Below, piece by piece: positions 3,546 to 53,580 of a stretch of DNA of 64,000 bases. Source of the DNA: Raja brachyura (taxonomy: Eukaryota). The position numbers and the translations under genes are program-made. The first letter of the stretch is position 1. Every line of letters starts with the position of its first letter. Below the pieces are notes generated by a model. It was given only the letters and a program-made list of their open reading frames with translations. It did not search any database and had not been told where the DNA came from. The stretch lies in contig OY740801.1 of the NCBI GenBank assembly GCA_963514005.1, positions 16,554,001 to 16,618,000 on the forward strand. The letters are read 5' to 3'.

Positions 3546-5319
3546 AATGGGTTCCAAGGGAAAGAAATAGGAAGGTTGGGGGATTAAAATGACAATGTTA
3601 TGATTTGGAGGAAGCAAATGGGACTAAAGGCAAGCATTCAAAACTGTGTATTCACAAGCAAGGAAAAAAGGCCTTGGATAGGGTAGGAAAGCGTCATAGA
3701 GGGTTATTTGTGATAGTGGTGGTGGTTTTTTTGCAGAGGGCAGGGGAAGGTGATTGAAGACCATAGTTTGTAAACAAAAGAGAATGTAATTATATCAGTG
3801 GTTGTAATTAAAGAAGTTATATCACTTCTCAGTTCAGTTGGATAAAATCCTGAAAATGCACAAATAACTATCATTCCCAAGGCCACTTTAAAAGTTGGTA
3901 ACATAAAATAGGGCAATATTTGGAAAAAGAGGAAGATTTAAATGAATATCTAATTAATTTGTTGGTTTTAGCAATACACATCCCAAATGAAATAAGAGCA
4001 TTCTTTTGTACATTTATAATAGTTTGCAGTCAAACTAATTGGAATTTATTTTGGCCTGAGAAGCATTGGCAAATCTGGTAATACGCAGTGTTGCTGGTTC
4101 ACTGTTTCTGATTAAAAGAATAAATAGCTAATGTTATATTGAATGGCAATTTGTATAAATATTGAGAGCTTTTGTTTAGTTCCATAAAGCCCGCAGTAAT
4201 TAATGATTGAAGCTACATATTTTGGCTCACTAGATGCAGATATTTATGTAAATCCACAAATTTGCATGACGGTTCTATCCAGTTAATAAACTGGAGCATT
4301 TTCGGCCCTGTCAGATGAACATAAAATGTACGAGGTACTAATTGAAAGCATAGCAGGGAATTCTCAGTGTCCTCGTCAATATTTGATATTTAGCCAACAT
4401 GACTAAGAATCATGATGTTTTATCATTATCGCACTCATTGTAAAGTCTTTCTGGATGCAAATTTGGCCTTGCATGTTTCCAACATTTAAATAGTAATTGC
4501 TCCAAAAAGAACTTGCGTACTGTGAATGTTTGGGTTACTCTGAGATCATGACAGATGATATAAAATGCATCTTTCAACTTACTTCGGATTACATACTCGA
4601 AGATAGCATGTGTGACAATCACGCACAGCTCCTGCAACATGTTTTCAATAAGGTCTTTGCGAATAACATGACACTTGTTGCAAAATATTAGCAGCCGGTA
4701 ATTCACAATGAGCAATTGTGAGAATCTCCAGTATTGTATACATCAGCTCCGTGTCTGATGAGATTTAGCCAGCATAGATGTTAAAAATTAGGCCTCCAAA
4801 AAAACTCAAGATGTCAGAGTTTGCTTTCCATTGAATTAAACATCTCTGAGTAATCACCGAGTTTTCATATTTTTTTTAGAGGTATTTAGAGATACCTTTA
4901 TTTTATATATTTTAGAGGTATTTAGAGATTTTTTTTACTTGCTCAAACTTAGTAACTTTATAAAAGTCCTATTCTTTTTCAAGTGAGTGTTGGAATGTAA
5001 ATGAAGGTTGTGAAGGGTACTTTGTTGATGAGAACCCTGTCTTTTTTTTTCCACAGCAAAGATGAACAAGTTTTCTTGATTATTTTCCCCGGCTCTTCAA
5101 AAATTAAAAACATTGTTATTGAATAAAATATGTCAAACCATTGCTAATAAATTTTGTGTTTTTGGAAGATGTTTCTGAACCTCAATGCAATCGACATGGT
5201 CCTTTCCAAAGTAGAAATGATCCAACAGGGGTCCATCAAAAGTAACTCCCTTTGTCTTTAAATCTTAAACTGCGTATTTAATCAATGCAAAAAACAATCT
5301 TTAGCTTAATTGTTCAGAG

Positions 5320-5565
5320 TCCTATTCCCTCATTCCAGGGCATAGGTTTAGAATATGGGATAAAAGGATTAGAGAGGATCTGAGGACGATTTTTTTCACC
5401 GTGAGAGTGGTTGCAATTATTTAAAACAAAGTTAGATGAGCACTTGAATCACCAAGGCAAATAAGCTTACAGGCTAAGTAAACTTCTTAGCTTTTTGTTG
5501 GTGGGTATTTGCTGGTCAGTGTAGACACTGGGGTCAAAGGGGCTGTGTCTGTGCTGCATGTCTGT
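5320..5565 (+). mobile_element. Degenerate CR1 3' fragment
   Basis: 'ccaggggcataggtttagaat...tttttcaccgtgagagtggttg' matches the CR1 3' region seen elsewhere in the window. Confidence 0.6.
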
Positions 5566-5575
5566 GTCTTAACAT

Positions 5576-5581
5576 TTTATT
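5576..5581 (-). terminator. Candidate SOX8 polyadenylation signal (distal AATAAA)
   Basis: TTTATT on plus = AATAAA on minus, at the end of ~1.3 kb of repeat-free AT-rich 3' UTR-like sequence. A second, proximal AATAAA lies at 6014-6019. Confidence 0.45.
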
Positions 5582-6875
5582 GTCTAATCCATGAACTAAT
5601 TATTTTTCTTAAAATTAGATGCCCCAACATACAGTAAAAAGCTTTGTTTTTAATCTTGACATTTTATCTGTACAAAAGTTAACATTGCTTAGTCAGAAAT
5701 TATTCTGCATTCCTCTAAGAGAGGACTCTAGCACAAACAGAATGGTTAAGTTACAATTGATTTCTCAAACTTTATACAGTAAACAGTTTGCAAAAAGGAT
5801 TTGCCAAGAATATCTTTTTCAAAACAAACATTTTTTTTCCAAAAATAGAAGTAAAAATTAACATAAATCTTTTTACTCTTGCAAACATTAAGGCACAAAT
5901 TAGCATTTAAATGGAAAACAAGTTTATATGCTCAGCATACAATTGAAACTGGAGACAAAAGACAGTATTAGACTACCCTATTCATCGACAGCATTTGTTA
6001 ATATGGGTTCGGTTTTATTGTGGTGGAGAATTAAAAGATTCACAGCTTGTTGGCTAAAATATATGGTCCCCAATAGTCCAAGTTGCCAAGGAACAAACTT
6101 TTGAAACTTCTCTGTTGGAAAAATTTACCATTTTATCCAGAAACTGTGACAAAGACATGATTTCAAAGCGTGTAATATGTTTAGTAAGATATGGTTTTCA
6201 CTCTGATTTAGAAAAAAAAAAATTGGCATGTCATTCAAAAAACTACCTCCCAAACCCATGGGAAATAAGTCAACTGATTCATTTTCCTTCAAGACACCCT
6301 TTCCATTATCACATGAATTCTTGATCGCACAAGAAAAAGACTAATTTTTTTTGCTTGAATTGTTCCAAGTAAAAAATGTAAAAATACATAAGATAAATAC
6401 ACACTTCAACAACTACAGTTCAGAAACAACACGTTTCAAAATTTTAGATATCCTCAACGCTTACATAACCTCTTTTCATAAACTTAGAAAATAAAACAAA
6501 CTAGGGAAAGAATAAAGATTTGCGGAGTCTGACCTATTTCATTCAAATGTAGTTTGTCCTCACAGAGGATCTCAGAGGTTTTCATTTCTCTCCGTCTTCG
6601 TGCTGGTAATCACTTCAGACCAAAGTTTTTGCCTTTTTCAAACAAAAAACGAAGTCACTGATGGTTGTCACTGGTCAGAATTGGCATCATTTGGATCAGC
6701 AGGCACTTAAAATGGAATGGTACAGTGCTCCACTCATTCAGTCTTTCATTAGTGCATAATGCCATGGAAGACTGATTAAGTCTCAAGGGTTCTTGAGATC
6801 ATGCATCTCCTAAACCTGCATCCCCACCCCCCCCCTCCCTCCCTCCCAATATGTATCCTGGGAAATTACCACTTC

Positions 6876-7603
6876 CTATGGCCTAGTCAGGGTTGTGTAG
6901 ACAGGTTGGTCCCAGTTAGTCGGGCTGTGGGCTGGAGGAATGGAGAGGCTATTCAGAAGGGGTGATGCATAAGGACGGCGAGATGAATGAAAATAAGGGT
7001 ACTGGTAGATGGTTGAAGGGTATCCGGAGTAAGGGTTGTAGTAATTGGGGCCTTGGACGTCAGAATAGTCACATTGGGAGCCAGGGAAGGCAGCAGCACT
7101 GGCACTGATAGGACTGCATCCCTGGCTGCTATAGGAGCTATAATCGGTTTGTGGCGATGAGCCGTGATGTTGGTCGTTGTAGTGAGTTGGGCTCAGCTGT
7201 TCGGTCTTAATGTGCAGCCTTTGCTGGCTGGGTTCGCTGGAGACTGATGAGGAGGACGAGGAGGATGAGATGCTCTTATGGTTCCAGATGGCTTGGGCGG
7301 TGCTGCTGCTGGTCAGGTAGGAAGCGCTGTAGGAGCCACTCATGTTCGGTCCGTGGCTGTGGTCGGAGGGGAGAGGCAGAGCGTGGCCATTCAGCGGTAG
7401 GTACTGGTCAAACTCGTGGACGTCGAAGGTCTCTATGTTATTGATGACCTCGCTGCTCAGCTCGCTGATGTCCACGTTGCTGAAGTCAATGTTCTGCCGG
7501 CCGTTCTCCGGCATGGAGCGCCCCTCCCTCTTCAGCTCATGCTTGCCTGTGTGGAGGTCAGTTTTGGGAGTGGTGGGTGGAGTTGGGGGCCCTTGTGCGT
7601 GGC
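6876..7603 (-). CDS. SOX8: SOX8 coding exon 3 (K2/TAM region, IKTE SUMO motif, C-terminal transactivation domain)
   Basis: Acceptor taatcag|GC at 7604/7603. Encodes GHAQGPPTPPTTPKTD...NIDFSNVDISELSSEVINNIETFDVHEFDQYLP...IKTEQ...WDQPVYTTLTRP*. The C-terminus is SOX8-type (SOX9 has WEQPVYTQLTRP, SOX10 has WEQPVYTTLSRP). Confidence 0.95.
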
Positions 7604-7778
7604 CTGATTAAGAACAAAAGGACAGGCCTTTACTACAGAAGTCAGAAATAGAGCAATCAATTACACGACAGCCACGGGCGAGCAGTGTTAACACTTTTTT
7701 TAAAATCACACAAAGCATTAGGAGGTCCCTGGGCTATTGGACCCGTGCAAGAGTTATCCAACCAGCCACTTCTTCATG

Positions 7779-7904
7779 ATGTTTAAGAAGGAACTGCAGA
7801 TGCTGGAAAATCGAAGGTAGACAAAAGTGCTGGAGAAACCCAGCGGGGTGCAGTGGTATCTAAGATGCTGCTGCACCCGCTGAGTTTCTGCAGCACTTTT
7901 GTCT
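7779..7904. mobile_element. Penelope-derived fold-back repeat in SOX8 intron 2 (no ribozyme core)
   Basis: Perfect 18-bp TSD ACCAGCCACTTCTTCATG (7761-7778 and 7905-7922). Internal inverted repeat gtagacaaaagtgctggagaaac.../...gtttctgcagcacttttgtctac. Confidence 0.85.
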
Positions 7905-8149
7905 ACCAGCCACTTCTTCATGCTCTTTCACCCTGGCATTACAATCCTCCCCCAACTCCACTACCCATTCCAACGTATCTCAAATACCCTTCAGAAGTCA
8001 CCGCTGAACACGTATTCAAGAGAGTCAAGAGTGTTTTATTATCATATGTCCCTGACAGAACAATTAAATTCTTACTTGCAGCAGCACAACAGAAAATGTA
8101 AATATAGTACACTGTAAACAATATAATAAATGAGAAAAAAAAGTTCAGT

Positions 8150-8325
8150 GTGCATATATACACACACATACCCATATATATTATAAATGCACATATACAT
8201 TATATACATTTTATGTAATAAATATATAAATATATATAAAATGTAAATTAAATATAAAATGTATACACATATATATATGTGCGTGTGTGTGTATATATAT
8301 AAAATTAATGTACACGCACACATTC
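8150..8325. repeat. Compound (TA)n/(CA)n/(GT)n microsatellite
   Basis: Directly visible dinucleotide runs. Confidence 0.85.
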
Positions 8326-9274
8326 CACAAACAATACGAAAGAGTACCGGCCCTCAGTGTCCCGAGACTGCTGCTGAATCTATTTTCCGCCGTCTCTTGT
8401 AGTAAGCCAAGCTGCACTGAACTGTCGGGAAAAAAACCCGTCTCCTCATCCCCGCTCTTCCAATAAGCCTCCCTGCCAACCGAAACCATTCACTTCATCA
8501 CCCACATTATTGACCGTCCCCTTTAACCTTCTCTGCTGGTAGGAAGACAACGTCGGTTTCTCTCATCTTCCCGCCTAACTTTACGCCACCAGTTGGAAAC
8601 TTTTTGGCAATTATGCAAAAAGTGTATTGAAAGCGCAAATAAATGAAAAGCCCCAACAATTGTTTTTGTACACGGGGTTAATGTAAGTTAGAGGGTCCAA
8701 ACTGTCTCTTTCGTTAACTCCTACCGTTTTGTCCCGAGGGCCAAATCCGTGGTGAATCGGGTACAGGTGACAGTATTAGGGAAGGGAAGTGGACCTTTTG
8801 ACCCAGGTAGGTGGATGAAAATGTTCAGAAAAGCGAAGAATCTTCCACCTGAAACGTGAACTCTGTCTCTTCCCACAGATGCGGCCTGGCCCGCTGAGTA
8901 GTCCCAGCATTTTCTGTTTTTATTGCAAATGGGGACAGTTTTTTTTTGTCTCTCAATGGACAACGCAACCGGGCCAGAAACCCCTTAACCCAAACCAATC
9001 ACTGTGGTTTCTCTTGGATAAAGACTGGGCACGGTTAACTTTGAGACCAGGGTCTGATAAACTCAGGAGTTCTTCGGTGTAAGATGCTTAAGCAACGTGA
9101 CCAGGGCGTTAAATGGTTAAACGACCAGTTAGTCGATGTGACTCCACGTTGGCCTCAGACCTGCGCTGTTATCCTCGCCCGCTTTCTTGTCTTTGTCACT
9201 GGAGTAGCGCGCCCCCTCCAACTCCCACCACGCCGCTCCCAAGACCCCCAGCCCTCCAACTCTCGGCTGCTCAC

Positions 9275-16595: not shown

Positions 16596-16952
16596 GGCAG
16601 ACACAAAATGCTAGAGTAACTCAGCGGGACAGGCAGCATCTCTGGGTAGAAGGAATGGGTGACGTTTCGGGTCGAGACCCTTCTTCAGACTGAAGAGTTC
16701 CAGCATTTTGTGTCCACCTTCGGTGTAAACCAGCACCAGCAGTTCCTTCCTACACATTTAGTCTGCCCCACCGTGAAATCTCCTCAAGGTATGCCTACTT
16801 TGAAGAGGTTCTACTCCGAGTCTGAAGAAGGGTCTCGACCTGAAACCTCGCCCATTCCTTCTATCCAGGGATGCTGCCTGCCCCGCTGAGTTACTCCACC
16901 ATTCTGTGTCTATCTTCGGTGAAAACCAGCGTCCGCAGTCCCTTCCTGCACC
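16596..16952. mobile_element. Penelope-derived compound fold-back repeat with two hammerhead cores
   Basis: Intact minus-strand core at 16688-16661 (CTGAAGAAGGGTCTCGACCCGAAACGTC), mutated plus-strand core at 16822-16849, inverted arms. Confidence 0.85.
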
Positions 16953-25452: not shown

Positions 25453-28260
25453 TTAGCTAAAAGCTAAAGTAAACATAAAAGTTTTCAGTCTTGTTTTAAA
25501 AGTGGTCAAAGTTGGGGCAAGTCTTAAATCTTCAGGAAGTTTATTCCAGCTATTTGATGCATAGTAACTAAATCCGGCTTTCCCATGTTTTGTATTTACT
25601 CTGGGAATCACTAACAGATTGGTCTCTGAAGATCTTAGCGGTCTAGAAGACTTATATAGTGGAAGCATGTCAGTGACATACTTTGGCCCTAAACCATGTA
25701 GTGATTTATAGGTGAGCAGCACGATTTTGAAATCAATTCTCTGACATACAGGGAGCCAATGTAAGGATTTAAGAATTGGTGTAATGTGTTCAAATTTTTT
25801 GGTCTTTGTTAGAACTCTAGCAACAGCGTTCTGAAATGGCTGTAGCTGCCTGACAGTTTTTTTCGGAAGACCTGCAAGGAGACCATTACAATAACCTAGC
25901 CTACTAGTAATGAAGGCATGTACAAGTTTTTCTAAGTCTTGAGCTGACATGAGTCCTCTTAGTCTTGCTACATTTTTGGGGTGATAGTAGGCCGATTTTG
26001 TTACTGATTTGATGTGACTGTCGAAATGTAAATCTGAATCCATAATAACCCCTAGATTTCTGACTTTGAGGTTTTCAGGGATAAAGAATGAAGGTGTTGG
26101 GTTACTTCAAGCCTTTCTTTTTTAGCACCAAAAACAATGATTTCCGTTTTGTCCCTAGTTAGTTGAAGGAAATTTTGGCACATCCAATCTTTGACTTGCT
26201 CAACGCACTGGCACAGCAGATCTATGGGCGATAGTCATTTGGTGATAGCGCTACATCGATTTGAGTGTCATCGGCATAGCAGTGGTAGTCAATATTATTA
26301 TTTTGCATGGTTTGCCCTAGTGGGAGCATGTAGATGTTGAATAAAGAGGGTCCTAAGATCGAACCTTGTGGGACTCCACACGTCACGTTGGTTGGTTCTG
26401 ATACAAAGTTGCCAATGGAAACAAAATAGTTCCTATCTTGTAGATATGACCTGAACCAACTTGAAACTGTGCCTGAAAGCCCCACCCATTTTTCCAACCT
26501 GTCCAAAAGTATTGAGTGATCAACAGTGTCGAATGCAGCACTGAGGTCTAATAGCATTAATATTGAAATTTTGCCAGAGTCTGTGTTAAGATGGATGTCA
26601 TTTACAACTTTAATAAGGGCGGTCTCGGTGCTATGAAGGGGTCGAAATCCTGACTGGAAGTTGTCATAGCAGCCAGTTGAAGCCAGGAAGTGATTACGTT
26701 GCTGGAGGACAACTTTCTCAATTATTTTACTTATGAAGGTAGGTTTGATATTGGTCTATAGTTGTTAATAACTAGAGGCATCTAGGCTCCACTTTTTAAA
26801 AAGGGGTTTAATAACTGCAGTTTTCAAGGCTTTTGGGAAATTGCCTGATTGAAGAGAGCTGTTAATTATTTGCAGTATGTCTATTGGTAGGCAGTCAGAA
26901 ACATTCTTAAAAAAGTTGGTGGGTAAAACATCAAGGCAGCAGGTGGTTGGCCTTGGTTGTGTCACCGTTTCCACAAGTGTTTTAGCGTTTATGACATTAA
27001 AGCATGTCATCATTGCCACATTACTTTTGCCTAAACAGGGTGGTGATCCAACATTTTTGTTTGAAGCGGAGATATTGATGGCACATCTGATGCCTTCAAT
27101 TTTATCAGTATAAAAGAATGCAAACTCATTGCATTTCTGCGAGGAATGGAGTTCAGGTGGTATTTGTGTTGGGGGGTTGGTCAGTTTGTCAACAGTTGCA
27201 AATAGGGTCTTTGCCTTATTAGTGTTGTTAATGATATTGGAGAAAAATGTTTCTCTAGCATTTTTTAAGTCTAAACTGTAGGCATGGAGGCTCTCTTTAT
27301 AGATGTCATGGTGAATATGAAGTTTTGTTTTCCGCCAGATGCGTTCAGCTTTCCGGCATTCTCTTTTCTGGGCTGTTACAAAAGCAGCTTTTCTCCAGGG
27401 TGCCGTTTGCTTACCAGAAATCATTTTAACCGTAACAGGTGCAACGACATCTATAACTTTCATAATTTTGGAATTAAAGTTATCTACAAGATCATCAGCA
27501 GAACATGGGTTTAGAGGTGGTAACAAGGAGATGGCATTTTTAAAGAGTACATTAGAATGTTCATTTATATACCGTTTTTTGACAGTATTTGATTTTATCT
27601 GTATGTCGGGAATAAAAAATATATTAAAAAAAACCACAGAAGTGGTCAGACAATGAAGGATCAGTCACAAAAATATCAGAAACATTGAGACCCTTTGTGA
27701 TAATCAAGTCCAGGGTGTGCCCCTTACAATGAGTAGCCTCTTTCACATGTTGAGACAGTTCAAATGTGTCTAAAATAGTAAAAAGTTATTTTCCACCCAT
27801 ATCATTCAAATCATCAGTATGAAAATTAAAATCACCAGTTATAACTAGACAGTCAAAGTCAGTGGTGATGCTAGACAATAATTCTGTAAAGTCATCAAAA
27901 AAGTTTGCATGATATTTAGGTGGCCTGTAAATAATTAATAGGAGAACTCTGGGGGAACATTTCAATGCAGCACAAAGGTATTCGAATGATGGAAAATCAC
28001 CAAGTGACATCTGTTTCCCCTGAAATACATTTTTAAATATAGCAGCAACCCCTCCACCTCTTTTTCCAGATCTACATACATCAAAAAAGTTATAGTTGGG
28101 AGAAGCTGTCTCGGTCAGAATGGTTGCACTGTTATTTTGTTCTAGCCATGTTTCAGTTAAAAACATAAAATCCAGTTTAGAGGTGGTAATAACATGATTG
28201 ACTAAAAATGATTTGTTATTAAGAGACCTAACATTAAGCAGACCCATCCTGATGGCATTA
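25453..28260 (-). pseudogene. L2 ORF2 (APE endonuclease + reverse transcriptase), frameshifted
   Basis: GLLNVRSL, FLTETW, IIYRPP, GDFNFH (APE). LLDLSAAFDTVDH, GVPQGSILGP, YADDTQ (RT). HITPILKSLHWLPV (L2 C-terminus). Seen in ORFs 27786-28388, 26765-27637, 26222-26557 and 25453-26043. Confidence 0.9.
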
Positions 28261-28351
28261 TTGATAGGCTTTGTGGTTGGTTTTGGTTTGGAGGGAATAG
28301 GTATTGTTAGGTGAGCAGTGTGTCTAAGTTTCCCTTTGTTTCCTCTCTTAG

Positions 28352-29385
28352 TAGCAATGTTACAAAATTTTGAGATTTTAAAAATCAAGTCTGCAATTTA
28401 TCCCATCAGATAAAGCATAAAAAGAAGTTTAATTTGACACCTAATTCACTTTCATATCTTCAGTATTAAGAAAGTTATGGCCATTTTCATACTCGGAAAT
28501 TAGCACATTGTTCCCCATTGCCTTTCAATTGACTTAACTCAAAAGCTGTGATCTGGAACAGTTAAAAGCCCATAACTTTCTTAAAAATTAAGAGAACTCA
28601 ATGGAATTTTCAGTTATTATAGATTGAAGCATTCTGAAACAAATATGAAACAATCTTACTTGGATTACCTGAAATTAAAGCATATAATTAGTTAGTTATC
28701 TAATTGTAGCTAATTACAAAATTCAATGAGTAGATCTAAACATCTATCCATTTCTTAAGAAAAGATAAACTTTTTTAAAATTGCCTAAGTGTCCAAATAA
28801 CATTCACACAATAATGCACAATATAACATAATTTTTAAATCTAATTTTCATGAATTTCTGGGCCAAATGGAAGGAATTTAGTGTTTGATTCCTGTAAATT
28901 AATGGCCATTTAAATCAACTAGCGAGTGGGTTTTAGTGGAATGCGGTGGATTGAAACGTTGCGGTTAACGGTGAAGTCGGGAGGAAAAATACTGTTTGTT
29001 CATACATTTTTTTGGACCCCATTTCGCAACATGAAAATGTTATTAAAGCCTCCCGAAAAACCAACTTTTAATATAAAAATAAACTATTTACCTTTTTTTC
29101 TCCCCTACGCAAAATCCTTCCGGTTGTCGGCGCTCACGGCTTTTGAAGGTGATTTTTAAATTACTCTAGTTAATAAATAATTTAGAGTAATTTAAAAATA
29201 CCTTCATTCATGAAATGTCGGAGCGATTTTTCTTCTGCAACGAAATCGCCCGACATTGATCGATTTTCCCTGCCTGTGGAAAAACGGCACTTTAAGCCCG
29301 CCCCCCTCTGAAAGGCGCCAAAGTCACGCACACGGGGAGCGGCAGAACTGCAGCGCTGCTCAAGGTAAGTTTTGTAACATACCTA
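28352..29385. mobile_element. Non-autonomous TIR DNA transposon (~1.03 kb, TAG...CTA termini) nested in the L2
   Basis: TIR TAGCAATGTTACAAAA / TTTTGTAACATACCTA (14/16 match). Flanking direct repeat CTCTTAG (28345-28351 and 29386-29392). Removing it restores continuous L2 sequence. No ORF. Confidence 0.85.
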
Positions 29386-34212: not shown

Positions 34213-34950
34213 TGTAGGAAGGAACTGCAGATGCTGGTTTCCACCAAAGTTGGACACAAAAATGCTGCAGTAACTCAGTGGGTCAGGCAGCATATATGGA
34301 GCAAAGGAATAGGTAACGTTTTGGGTCGAAACACTTCTTCAGACTGAGTCAGGGGAGAGGGCAACTAGAGGTATGAAAAGGTTCAAAACAAATCAGAGCC
34401 AGCACCGATGACTAAGGAAAGGTGAAGCCCACAGTGGTACATTGTTGGATGTGGAAGAGGTGATAACATCAATATTCATACTGCAGGGTTGCTTGAAATT
34501 AGAATTCAATATTCATACCACCGGGTTGCTTGAATACCCAGCTGTATGAATATTGATTTCTCTCATTTCAAATACCTTTTGCATATCCTCCCTCTCCACC
34601 TCTCCTCCACCCTAGTCGTCCTGTCTGTTCCACTGTTCGTATCCATATATCCTTTTGTTATCCACAACAGTGGGGGGAACCATGTTTAATGAAGTAAGAG
34701 GACATATTGGAAAGCCTCATTTTGGAGCAGATGCGACGGGGACAGAGAAATTGAGAGTAAGGGATGATGTCCTTGCAAGAGGTAGGGCGAGAAGAGGTGT
34801 ATCCACCTATCACTTGCCAGGCATTGTCTTGCCTTCAGACCTCTTTTTCTATCTTTCATCCCGCTACACTATCAGTCTGAAGAATGGTCCTGTCCCAAAA
34901 TGTCACCTGTCCATTTCCACAGAGATTGCATGACCTGTTGCGTTCATAGA
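34213..34950. mobile_element. Rearranged Penelope-like element (terminal repeat, ORF-end duplications/inversions, RT fragment)
   Basis: Minus-strand terminal repeat at 34213-34345. ORF-end motif gtatgaatattga in both orientations (34470-34570). Minus-strand DIIPYSQFL...RRICS-like RT thumb motif at about 34725-34775. Decayed plus-strand core at 34877-34904. Confidence 0.75.
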
Positions 34951-49466: not shown

Positions 49467-49766
49467 GTGAGTGATGCGACTACTTTATTGTACAGGCCTA
49501 GTGGGATTTTTTTTTGTTTCTCTTTCTAATTAGTTAATTACTACTTTCTGTTGCATGGAGAAATGCTGCCATGTTAAAAAGCCAGATAGCAGTAGAATTC
49601 AAAATTTGGTGTTGAGGTTTGACGTGACGTGGATAGAAAGCTTCATGAGAACTCCTGCAGAGGATAATCTAATTTAATTATATCCTTCAGTTTGTTCAGT
49701 CTATTGCATCTAGTTTGTATTCAAGCTGAGACTACAATTGTGGGCACATCTCCAGTACATAAATAT

Positions 49767-49981
49767 GTAGGAAGGAACGACAGATGCTGGTTTGAACCGA
49801 AGATAGACACAAAAAGCTGGAGTAACTCAGCAGGACAGGCAGCATCTCTGGGGAGAAGGAATGGTGACGTTTCGGGTCGAGACCCTTCTTCAGTCTGAAA
49901 AAGGGTCTCGACCTGAAACGTCACCCATTCCTTCTCTTCAGAGATGCTGCCTGTCCTGCTGAGTTACTCCAGCTTTTTGTG
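49767..49981. mobile_element. Penelope-derived near-perfect fold-back element with back-to-back hammerhead cores
   Basis: TSD TCCAGT(A/G)CATAAATAT (49751-49766 and 49982-49997). Palindrome centred on 49894. Minus core 49893-49866 is intact; plus core 49895-49922 has CTGAAAA. Confidence 0.9.
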
Positions 49982-50459
49982 TCCAGTGCATAAATATATT
50001 GGCTTCTTAGCCCAACCAGAGGGCTCCTCCCTAAAGTTTGATGAAAAATGAAAGGCTGCATGCAGTTCTAGAGATTCGTAAAATGTCTTGTCATCAAACT
50101 CCCAAACCCTGACTACACAAAAAAATGTACGTATTGTCTTTCACCTGGCTGTGGTCTGCAATAATGTAATGTGATGACTGCTTTTTACCAATGTGAAAAG
50201 GGAAAAGATATGAGCCTTAACTTTCGATTAGTTAAATGAGATTCATTGGATATTATAAATATGGGCACAATACACTTTGTCCATGTTAAAAAATTGAGAT
50301 ATTAATCTGCGACCACTCAAAAAACAATGCCATGAAAAATATATTCAATCCCTGAAGATAGCTTGCAGTAGAGCCTTGGGCTGACCTAAGAGCTTAACAA
50401 ATAGAATTTGGAGAAACTCATTCAGTGGGCTCTACCATTCATTAAGAGCATGGTTAATA

Positions 50460-53030
50460 TTTTACCTCTGTGCCGCTTTCTTGTACTACCCATATTCCTT
50501 GGTTATCTTAGTTTCCAAAATGTATCAGTCCCAGACTTGAATATATGCAATGACTGGGTCTCCATATAACTAAGGATCCATGAAGAAATTTTCCTCATCT
50601 CAGTTCTGAGTGGCCAGCCATTTATTTTGAGACTGTGATCCTTACATTTAAACATTCCAGCAAGGGGAAATGCCACCTCTACGTAATCCTGCCAGGTTCC
50701 ATAACGAAATATACAACATTCTTGAGATTTTCTCTCATTCTTCTTAACTAGGGGAATATTGGCCACTGTACTTAACCTCTTCTCAAAGGGACAACTTGTT
50801 CAATCCTAAGGATCAATCTGATAAGCCATTTTGTCACAAACATGTCATTTCTTAAGAAGGAACACTAGACCTATGCACGATATTCGAAGTGCGGTTTGAA
50901 TAAGGCCCTTATAAATGCAGTGAGATTGCTGTACTTAAATTCTCTTACAAGAAAGGGCAATGTATGGTTTGCCTTCCTAATTGCATGCTATAACTGCACA
51001 TTCACTTTTGGCAATTCATGGACAGTAAAAACTTTAATAATCTGCTATCCGATTGTTTGGAAATCCAGATGGTTTGGCAGCTCACGAGATGCTGATGCTT
51101 GTGCTCCTTTCAACGCATTGGGCTCCAGGATTCATGAGCTCCCCTTAAACTTACCAGATTCTCTGAAATATTTACTCTCCTACTGTGTAAATCTAATTTA
51201 AAGTGTGTTCAGATATTAATAGGAATAACATACAATAATCCAGAGAACTTTTCAGTCTGTCACCATCAATAACCCAAACATGCCAGATTAACCGAGCTTT
51301 ACTGCAGAAGGATACATAAGTCCTCCTAACAATCAACACCTTTTAAACTCTCACTATTAGAATCAAACACTTTGGTTTACTGCTTTTACTACCAAAGTGG
51401 ATAAACTCACATTTTTTTACATTAGGCTCCATTTGCCATATCCAGGACTTGCTTAGTCTGTGTTTCCTGGGAGCTCCTCTGCATCTTCAATCCTACAGTG
51501 CAGCCCTTTATATGGAAAATAATGAGGGAACATATGACGTTATCCACCTGGGAAGGAAAATAAATGCCGTGTTTGCATGGACTGAGGCTACAAAATGTTG
51601 TGATGTAGAGTGATCTGGAGTCCTCGTACATGAAACGAGAATTGATGTGAAAACTCAGCAAGCAGCAAGAAAGCGTAATGGAACAATGTAGAAACAAGGA
51701 ACTGCAGATGCTGGTTTGTACAAAAGATAGACACAAAGTATTGGAGTAATATGGGGTCAGGCTGCATCTCTGGAGAAAACGTCTGGCAGCATCATTCTGA
51801 AGAAGGGTCCTGACCCGAAATGTCATCCATCCTTTTTCTCCAGTGATGCTGCCTGATACACTGAGTTATTCCATTTGGTTGTGTCTATCTACTGGAACAT
51901 TGGGTTTCACTGTGAGGCATGGACATATATATATGAAAATATACACCGCAAACTATTGAAGTCCCAGCACTGATCCCTGTGGAACACCACTGGTCACAGA
52001 CCACCAACCAGAATGACAATCTTCTGGATCAGTCTATCATGGGGGACCTTGTTGAATCATTTACTAAAGTCCATGTAGGCAACGTCCATCTCCCTACCTT
52101 CATCAATCACTTTTGTCTGCACCTCAAAAGAAACTCAATTAAGTTTGCAAGGCGGGTCTTATCCACATTGAAACTCTTCAAGAAACCCAACCCCACCTCA
52201 TTATGATTGCAAAATGCCCTAGCATAATAATATACTGATCTCAATCTCCTCCATGTCATTCTCCTTGGTGAACACCAGTGCAAGGTACACGTTTAATACC
52301 TTGCCCACATCCTCTCATTCCAAGCATCCCTCCTTCACTCTTGAGTGGTCCTACCCTCTCATTAGTTACCCTCTTGTTCGTATAAAATGGCTCTTTAGCC
52401 CTAATTGCAAAGGACATTTCACGGTCCCCTTTGTCCCTCTTATTCCCTGCTTGTTCTTTCTTGCTTTCTTTATATTCCTCAAAGGCCCTGTCTTTTTTTT
52501 CTCTTCCTAAACCTTACATATGCTTCTTTTCCTTTTTGATCAAATTGGATTTTCATCCAAAGTTCCCTTACCATGCCATTTTTGTCCCACCTCCTTACTG
52601 GAACATGATCAGCTGGTCTTTAAATGACTCACACATGTCAGATGCGTACTTACCCAATAACAGCTGCTCCCAATTTACTCATCCGGGCTCCCGCCTAATA
52701 GTGTTGTAATTTTCCCTCCCCCAATTTAGCATGTTCTCCAAAGTCCAGACCTATCCTAATCATAACTATTTTAAAACTTCTGGAGTTGTGATCACAGTTC
52801 CCAAAATGCTCTTCCATTTAAAGGTTAGTCAACTGACCAGGCTCATTTCCCAATACAAGGTCCAATATGGTCTCCATTGGTGATAGGACTCTCCACATAC
52901 TCATTCAAGTAACCCTCCTGGATATCACCGACACGTGCTGTCCTGTCTTGTATGAAGGATACCCCAGTCAAAATTGATGTTAAAGTCACTCAGTATGAGT
53001 ATGACAACTCTGTTGCTTCAGTTCTGTCTG
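50460..53030. mobile_element. Degenerate CR1 fragments in both orientations
   Basis: DHSLKINGWPLRTEMRK (50503-50766), plus other CR1 ORF2-like stretches (e.g. catttactaaagtccatgtagg). Confidence 0.6.
51688..51890. mobile_element. Penelope-derived fold-back repeat with a near-intact plus-strand hammerhead core
   Basis: CTGAAGAAGGGTCCTGACCCGAAATGTC at 51797-51824, with inverted arms. Confidence 0.8.
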
Positions 53031-53259: not shown

Positions 53260-53580
53260 CGGTATGAATATTGATTTATCTAACTTCAACTAACCCCGTC
53301 CCTCCCCCATGCTAGATCTTCGTCTAGTTCTACTGTCCTCCTGATTTGATATTACCGATTGTATGCCTCCTTGTCACATTCCCCTCAGCTAACAATGAAC
53401 CATTCTACATTTCTTTATCAGCATCGGCTGTGATCTGTCTTTTTATCCTTCCATAATCTCTAGAGTCCCTCTCCCCTGACTCAGTCTGAAGAAGAGTCTT
53501 GACCCAAAACATCACCCATTCATTCGATCCAGAGATGCTGCCTGTCCCGTTGTGTTACTCCAGCATTTTGTGTCTATCCT
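53260..53580 (+). mobile_element. Penelope-like 3' fragment (ORF end GMNIDLSNFN*, 3' UTR, decayed hammerhead)
   Basis: ggtatgaatattgatttatctaacttcaactaa, then a pyrimidine-rich UTR, then ctgaagaagagtcttgacccaaaacatc at 53486-53513. Confidence 0.75.

Follow-up and report, generated by a model that had tools for sequence, protein, structure and literature searches.

Among the repeats in a 64,000-nucleotide stretch of Raja brachyura DNA (contig OY740801.1, positions 16,554,001 to 16,618,000; hereafter the window), one is a palindrome that carries two hammerhead ribozyme cores back to back. From which element does it derive, and how did its mirror image arise? We put a probability of roughly 85% on the following answer: the repeat is the end repeat of a Penelope-like retrotransposon (PLE), and the palindrome is a single insertion in which two short copies lie head to head, probably the work of the PLE enzyme on uncut RNA that likely starts just before the core.

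The focal palindrome and its hammerhead cores

The 28-nt core is found without mismatch at both sites named in the preliminary description, 49893-49866 and 16688-16661 on the minus strand. It fits the consensus of the minimal hammerheads (min-HHR) of PLEs as given in the available text of PMC4209133: C3-A9, G12-A15.1 and the NUH triplet are present, as are the unpaired base after A9, G10.1-C11.1 and a helix II of 4 bp closed by a 4-nt loop. Positions 15.2-16.2 are palindromic and allow a dimeric helix III, the dimer fold not being the predicted minimum. With this helix III and the one extra base after A9, the motif is, as the preliminary description recognised, a minimal type I hammerhead like those of Penelope elements. 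The proposed Rfam check returned no hammerhead family among its 11 matches (E up to 5), which are hairpin look-alikes; the motif call is therefore based on the published min-HHR descriptor. The weakness of helix I, suspected at about two pairs, is borne out: in each of three subfamily copies, taken together with the native upstream sequence, it measures 2 bp, and in none of the three does direct continuation lengthen it.

The whole insertion spans 49767-49983, of which about 180 nt are paired in the predicted fold (-171 kcal/mol), in agreement with the two-core palindrome of ~190 nt reported earlier. It is bounded by a 16-bp target-site duplication, whose left copy (49751-49766) matches the right one (49982-49997) at 15 of 16 bases, the first two bases of the latter being common with the arm end. 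The long arm (49767-49893, minus strand) runs from the hammerhead C3 through the body and a tail of ~35 nt to the second of two 3' ends, in the +99 to +107 class of young copies described below. Its core (49866-49893, minus strand) has intact catalytic positions; the A at position 2.1 lies opposite another A, and the first helix I pair (2.1-1.1) is thereby broken. A single base, 49894, forms the centre of the junction. Beyond it lies the short arm (49895-49983, plus strand), an end repeat without tail that stops at the first 3' end, with a core (49895-49922, plus strand) that carries G8A and C11.1U and is predicted to be dead. A 16-bp target duplication and a tail on one side only accompany this single head-to-head PLE insertion; an inverted pseudo-LTR (pLTR) with these attributes is a typical PLE layout in the available text of PMC3846280 and PMC8557442.

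Since the two cores occupy opposite strands, no dimer is possible within one RNA, and the notion that their back-to-back placement matters for dimer cleavage is not supported: they fold into a single hairpin. Fold prediction assigns hammerhead helices I and II a pairing probability of 0.00 on both strands of the palindrome, and both cores are predicted to be sequestered in the hairpin and inert.

The palindrome has many relatives in the window. The ~20 repeats counted at first were rightly read as a multicopy family and are an undercount, BLAST finding 37 repeat pieces and a profile built from the repeat body alone 34 matches. Seventeen cores are recognisable with at most 7 mismatches, against 0 in each of 5 shuffled controls, and helix II and the full set of catalytic positions survive in 4 of the 17; besides the two exact cores, that at 51797-51824 (plus strand) also has every catalytic position kept. 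The second exact core belongs to a copy at 16599-16692 (minus strand) with a 2-bp helix I, which is the short arm of a composite insertion. The arm opposite, 16699-16947 (plus strand), was read by side-by-side alignment with a whole element, L115, and consists in this order of a tail, the PLE 5' leader with the first ORF codons (about 16754-16812) and a further end repeat (core 16822-16849); the leader and codons tie the copies of the window directly to where the ORF starts. Two older copies, at 34214-34346 (minus strand) and 53482-53578 (plus strand), retain upstream 3' UTR sequence.

The window also holds a three-exon SoxE-group gene (11378-6876, minus strand) with Sox_N and HMG domains, the termini of which look to us like those of Sox8. 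Exons of LMF1 follow about 100 kb past the window on the same contig. The palindrome lies about 38 kb upstream of the SoxE-group gene, and several repeat copies lie in the introns of the latter. The endonuclease and RT frames of a disrupted LINE lie at 25453-28397 (minus strand); the element is presumably L2/CR1-like.

The parent element and its abundance

Seven of the first 30 exact copies sampled are preceded, in the same orientation, by the end of an RT/GIY-YIG ORF; this end contains an RT active site, a CX4CX2C linker and a GIY-YIG domain. The window's own subfamily (2,466 exact genome matches to a 54-nt pattern) is likewise joined to ORF remnants. Twenty long-ORF loci were fetched, three of them with a complete ORF of 1192 aa, and a whole copy consists of an end repeat, this RT and GIY-YIG ORF, and a second end repeat. 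In L115 a hammerhead core stands at each end in direct orientation, with 3971 nt from one to the other, the length of the unit; 163 nt separate the core from the start codon, and 229 nt the stop from the next core. ORF linkage and the paired end repeats of L115 together identify the repeat as the hammerhead-bearing end repeat (pLTR) of an autonomous, endonuclease-bearing (EN+) PLE. The separate non-autonomous element of the preliminary description gives way to this reading, the short copies having the sequence and both 3' ends of the autonomous one.

Pfam recognises RVT_1 (E 2e-4) and GIY-YIG (E 2e-3) in the ORF, both weakly and below the curated cut-offs. There are 515 homologues, with identities up to about 53%, many of them annotated as RT plus GIY-YIG. 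The linker between RT and endonuclease falls within the CX2-5CxxC pattern of Neptune and is common to Nematis; by this linker, rather than by a tree that fixes the clade, the PLE would be of Neptune type (PMC8557442, available text). A long proline-/histidine-rich insert at residues about 170-470 of the L115 ORF separates the helical N-terminal part from the RT and accounts for 1192 aa as against 700-950 aa in most of the homologues listed. The family is young and has intact ORFs: all 109 scored matches to the C-terminal 376 aa of the ORF are free of stops and 98-100% identical to it.

The high copy number proposed at the outset is amply confirmed. Across the 2.7 Gb of the genome there are 50,608 occurrences of the exact 28-nt core and 0 of its reversed control. 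With the body-only profile, 62 stretches of 10 kb chosen by position gave 273 matches (reversed DNA, 0), which extrapolates to a family size of about 1.19 million (bootstrap 0.97-1.41 million). The core is catalytically intact in 42 of the 254 position-chosen copies that could be placed.

Copy ends, the template RNA and the mirror image

Where the copies begin and end was read at 100 exact-core loci; the counts are confined to the 85 of the young subfamily and leave out the remaining 15. The 3' ends of 79 of the 85 fall at +60 to +68 or at +99 to +107 past the cut site, so that there are two fixed 3' ends separated by about 35 nt. At the other side, 50 of the 85 begin 0-5 nt before C3, and 31 reach as far as the 3' UTR or ORF.

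The position-chosen set was restricted to copies of at least 85% identity (159 of the 254 placed). Here 64 of 159 begin at -7 to 0 and 32 extend upstream; a further 47 begin inside the core and 11 beyond it, which makes the 5' edge a peak with a long tail. Starts within three bases of the cut site number 5 of 159, with only 2 exactly at the cut, so this position-chosen DNA holds no fossil peak there, and the counts are compatible with rare cutting as well as with none. Two sets of placed copies (172 and 90), both biased toward intact cores, contain 0 starts at the cut site each. In five solo copies (L005, L006, L010, L025 and L026), the target duplication and the 5' edge are separated by 5-16 additional bases, which do not match the element by an 8-base test.

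The base before the break is a G in 11 of 20 solo copies against 6 of 37 ORF-truncated ones (Fisher p 0.005); position-chosen copies show it in 15 of 30 cases (p 0.017). Genome-wide, G precedes the 5' edge in 3,188 of the 50,608 exact copies; as this is the sole base class counted genome-wide, the G excess rests on the samples, with their small numbers. Such an excess at the junction is the trace expected of cap copying, as established for LINEs; it could also stem from tailing by the enzyme. The starts just before C3 and the junction G together suggest that the short copies likely come from uncut, capped RNA that begins at the ribozyme. The bases at the 5' edge resemble the initiator-like site described for Adineta pLTRs (PMC3846280, available text). 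In contigs of four other organisms, loose ends lie at -4, and in two of these also at -2 or -3; the ends at -4 may reflect only differences between subfamily 3' UTRs. Positions -3 to -1 also resemble a splice acceptor after a pyrimidine tract, and in D. virilis an intron is reported to end at helix I (PMC4209133, in part). None of the 33 solo junctions inspected is a spliced product in which the ORF end runs into the core.

Could the short repeat instead be a non-autonomous element in its own right, akin to a retrozyme or SINE, with solo copies as the source of its RNA and the PLE protein mobilising it in trans? Of the 159 copies, 127 are short and 32 have upstream sequence, internal promoters are described in PLE end repeats (PMC2377424, in part), and animal retrozymes are said to derive from pLTRs in the accessible part of a preprint (bioRxiv 10.64898/2026.07.22.740005). 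Against this, the short copies match the end repeat of the autonomous element and have the same 3' ends, the tandem units that typify retrozymes are seldom seen (1 of 85 and 3 of 167), and no diagnostic sequence restricted to short copies was seen among those compared. We regard such an element as improbable.

The palindromes themselves have a regular build. One arm is short and the other long in 13 of 15 palindromic insertions, the remaining two being a composite and an indel case. Two long copies in L028 / L081:8453-9700 stand tail to tail with a short spacer between them, and each ends at a different one of the two 3' sites. A MITE-like unit, in which the ~217 bp of the palindrome would move as a whole, could explain why the arms are inverted, why a target duplication is present and why inverted pairs hold 20 of 85 young copies. 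It is very hard to reconcile with centres that vary between insertions, with unequal arms, with target duplications that are variable (about 10-16 bp where clear) and with the predominance of single arms and ORF ends among the copies, and we consider it highly improbable.

The element layout, the two fixed 3' ends, the clustering of 5' ends before C3, the target duplications and the unequal arms are direct observations; the start site, the cap, twin priming and the part played by the ribozyme belong to a proposed mechanism. Under the preferred reading, the RNA would start 2-4 nt before C3 at the initiator-like site and be capped, a step that we hold to be somewhat probable. The protein would bind its own RNA and start reverse transcription internally at one of two fixed sites: use of the site pair in the front end repeat would give stubs of 95-135 nt, and use of the back pair ordinary 5'-truncated copies. 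In support of this scheme, the anole PLE enzyme is reported to cut and extend both strands, with two internal start sites flanking the tail and uncut RNA as template (PMC11167929, available text). Both strands of the target would then be primed, one per site, and the cDNA ends joined at the near-palindromic start of the RNA, creating the mirror image; we give this last step slightly better than an even chance.

Fold-back copying is its closest competitor. Here either a cDNA that has reached the start of the RNA would prime its own copying, or an antisense template would act as its own primer; self-priming is proposed for Adineta PLEs (PMC3846280, in part). The arms of the palindromes have private variants in common, which fits fold-back as well as twin priming. 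Long head-to-head pairs that break at nearly the same position of the ORF speak for fold-back: the breaks upstream of the core lie at 980/982 and 43/43 nt in L142 and L154. A third such pair, L158, breaks at 19/32 nt, and likewise bears on the choice between fold-back and twin priming. The 13 of 15 insertions weigh the other way, as their second arm ends at the other start site of the enzyme and not randomly, and so does the priming of both strands by a PLE enzyme in vitro (PMC11167929, in part). We rate fold-back at somewhat below even odds.

What, in this scheme, is the hammerhead for? Five cluster consensuses, from copies found and clustered by the repeat body only, vary at 2 of 28 core columns against 22 of 62 body columns (p 0.0045, the body alignment being noisy), which points to a more conserved core in the comparison with the flank suggested in the preliminary description. 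No catalytic position varies. The changes between subfamilies lie in the loop or keep the pair (G-C to G-U, U-A to U-G); compensatory double changes in helix II were looked for between subfamilies and none was found, the helix changes being one-sided only. In predicted folds, a competing hairpin lowers the probability of helix II from 0.93 to 0.14-0.52 in a 37-nt RNA and to below 0.01 in a 130-nt RNA. Further on in the end repeat, about +20 to +85 past the cut site, near-invariant segments of the body are predicted to pair with the tail, a candidate structure for protein binding and the choice of start site.

With a helix I of 2 bp and an intermolecular helix III of 4 bp, the ribozyme would be weak alone. 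It would need a partner RNA and the PLE protein, and it would not be required for insertion; we consider this quite probable. Published min-HHRs cleave weakly as dimers (PMC4209133), and the anole PLE hammerhead cuts only with protein and is dispensable for insertion (PMC11167929), both in the available text. A core kept mainly as a promoter or protein-binding element, no longer cleaving, would suit its place at the inferred RNA start, the competing hairpin that prevails with only a few added bases, the missing fossil peak at the cut site and the failure of 8 of 9 Xenopus dimers to cleave (bioRxiv 10.64898/2026.07.22.740005, in part). The sparing of all catalytic positions by subfamily changes argues against it, as does the same catalytic pattern being kept across metazoan PLEs (PMC4209133, in part); we think it doubtful. 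Slightly less so, and still tentative, is the idea that the hammerhead forms the first 31 nt of a capped RNA. Its cut would then remove the cap instead of freeing the element from a longer transcript and would act as a protein-triggered off switch, with the roughly one million stubs recording twin priming on uncut RNA from the two internal start sites.

Comparison with known systems

This kind of hammerhead is already described (Cervera and De la Peña 2014, PMC4209133), and the family found here is a very abundant further member. In the available table of that paper, the nearest row is Acropora Neptune, with a 4-bp helix II and an identical helix III; a 2-bp helix I also occurs in D. virilis, Culex and Oikopleura, within a published range of 2-6 bp, and cartilaginous fish are absent from the 56 rows. 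Titles and abstracts yielded no published account of a PLE hammerhead family in this host; the family may already have a name in Repbase or Dfam. As the kind is known, the ribozyme itself is no news, and the value of the family lies in its scale and regularity: 50,608 exact copies far exceed the 4,000-9,000 reported for coelacanth and Xenopus (PMC4209133). The stubs, about a million in a young family, preserve in fossil form the start points of PLE RNA and of reverse transcription and the way in which mirror-image insertions arise. On these matters, and on the purpose of PLE hammerheads, the available text of PMC8557442 and PMC11167929 still poses questions.

Animal non-LTR retrozymes share the type I hammerhead and an origin in PLE end repeats, and are reported from one chondrichthyan (bioRxiv 10.64898/2026.07.22.740005, in part). 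They form head-to-tail tandem units, whereas the copies here are dispersed and single or head-to-head. Assignment to the retrozymes is disfavoured by the rarity of head-to-tail hammerhead tandems noted above and by the head-to-head arrangement of the focal pair.

Other EN+ PLEs likewise have an RT followed by GIY-YIG, with a CX4CX2C linker as in Neptune and Nematis, and also show partial tandems, a head-to-head inverted copy, a tail of 30-40 bp at one end and a target duplication (PMC8557442, PMC3846280, in part). The present family differs from them in that most insertions consist of the end repeat only, and in the long proline-rich N-terminal part of its 1192-aa ORF. Poseidon PAc of Anolis (Frangieh et al. 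2024, PMC11167929, available text) also has a hammerhead near the start of the ORF and two internal start sites bounding the tail; priming of both strands on an uncut RNA template is common to PAc and to our proposal. No start site at the core is given for PAc in that text. The ORF of PAc begins inside the hammerhead, whereas the start codon here follows 163 nt after C3.
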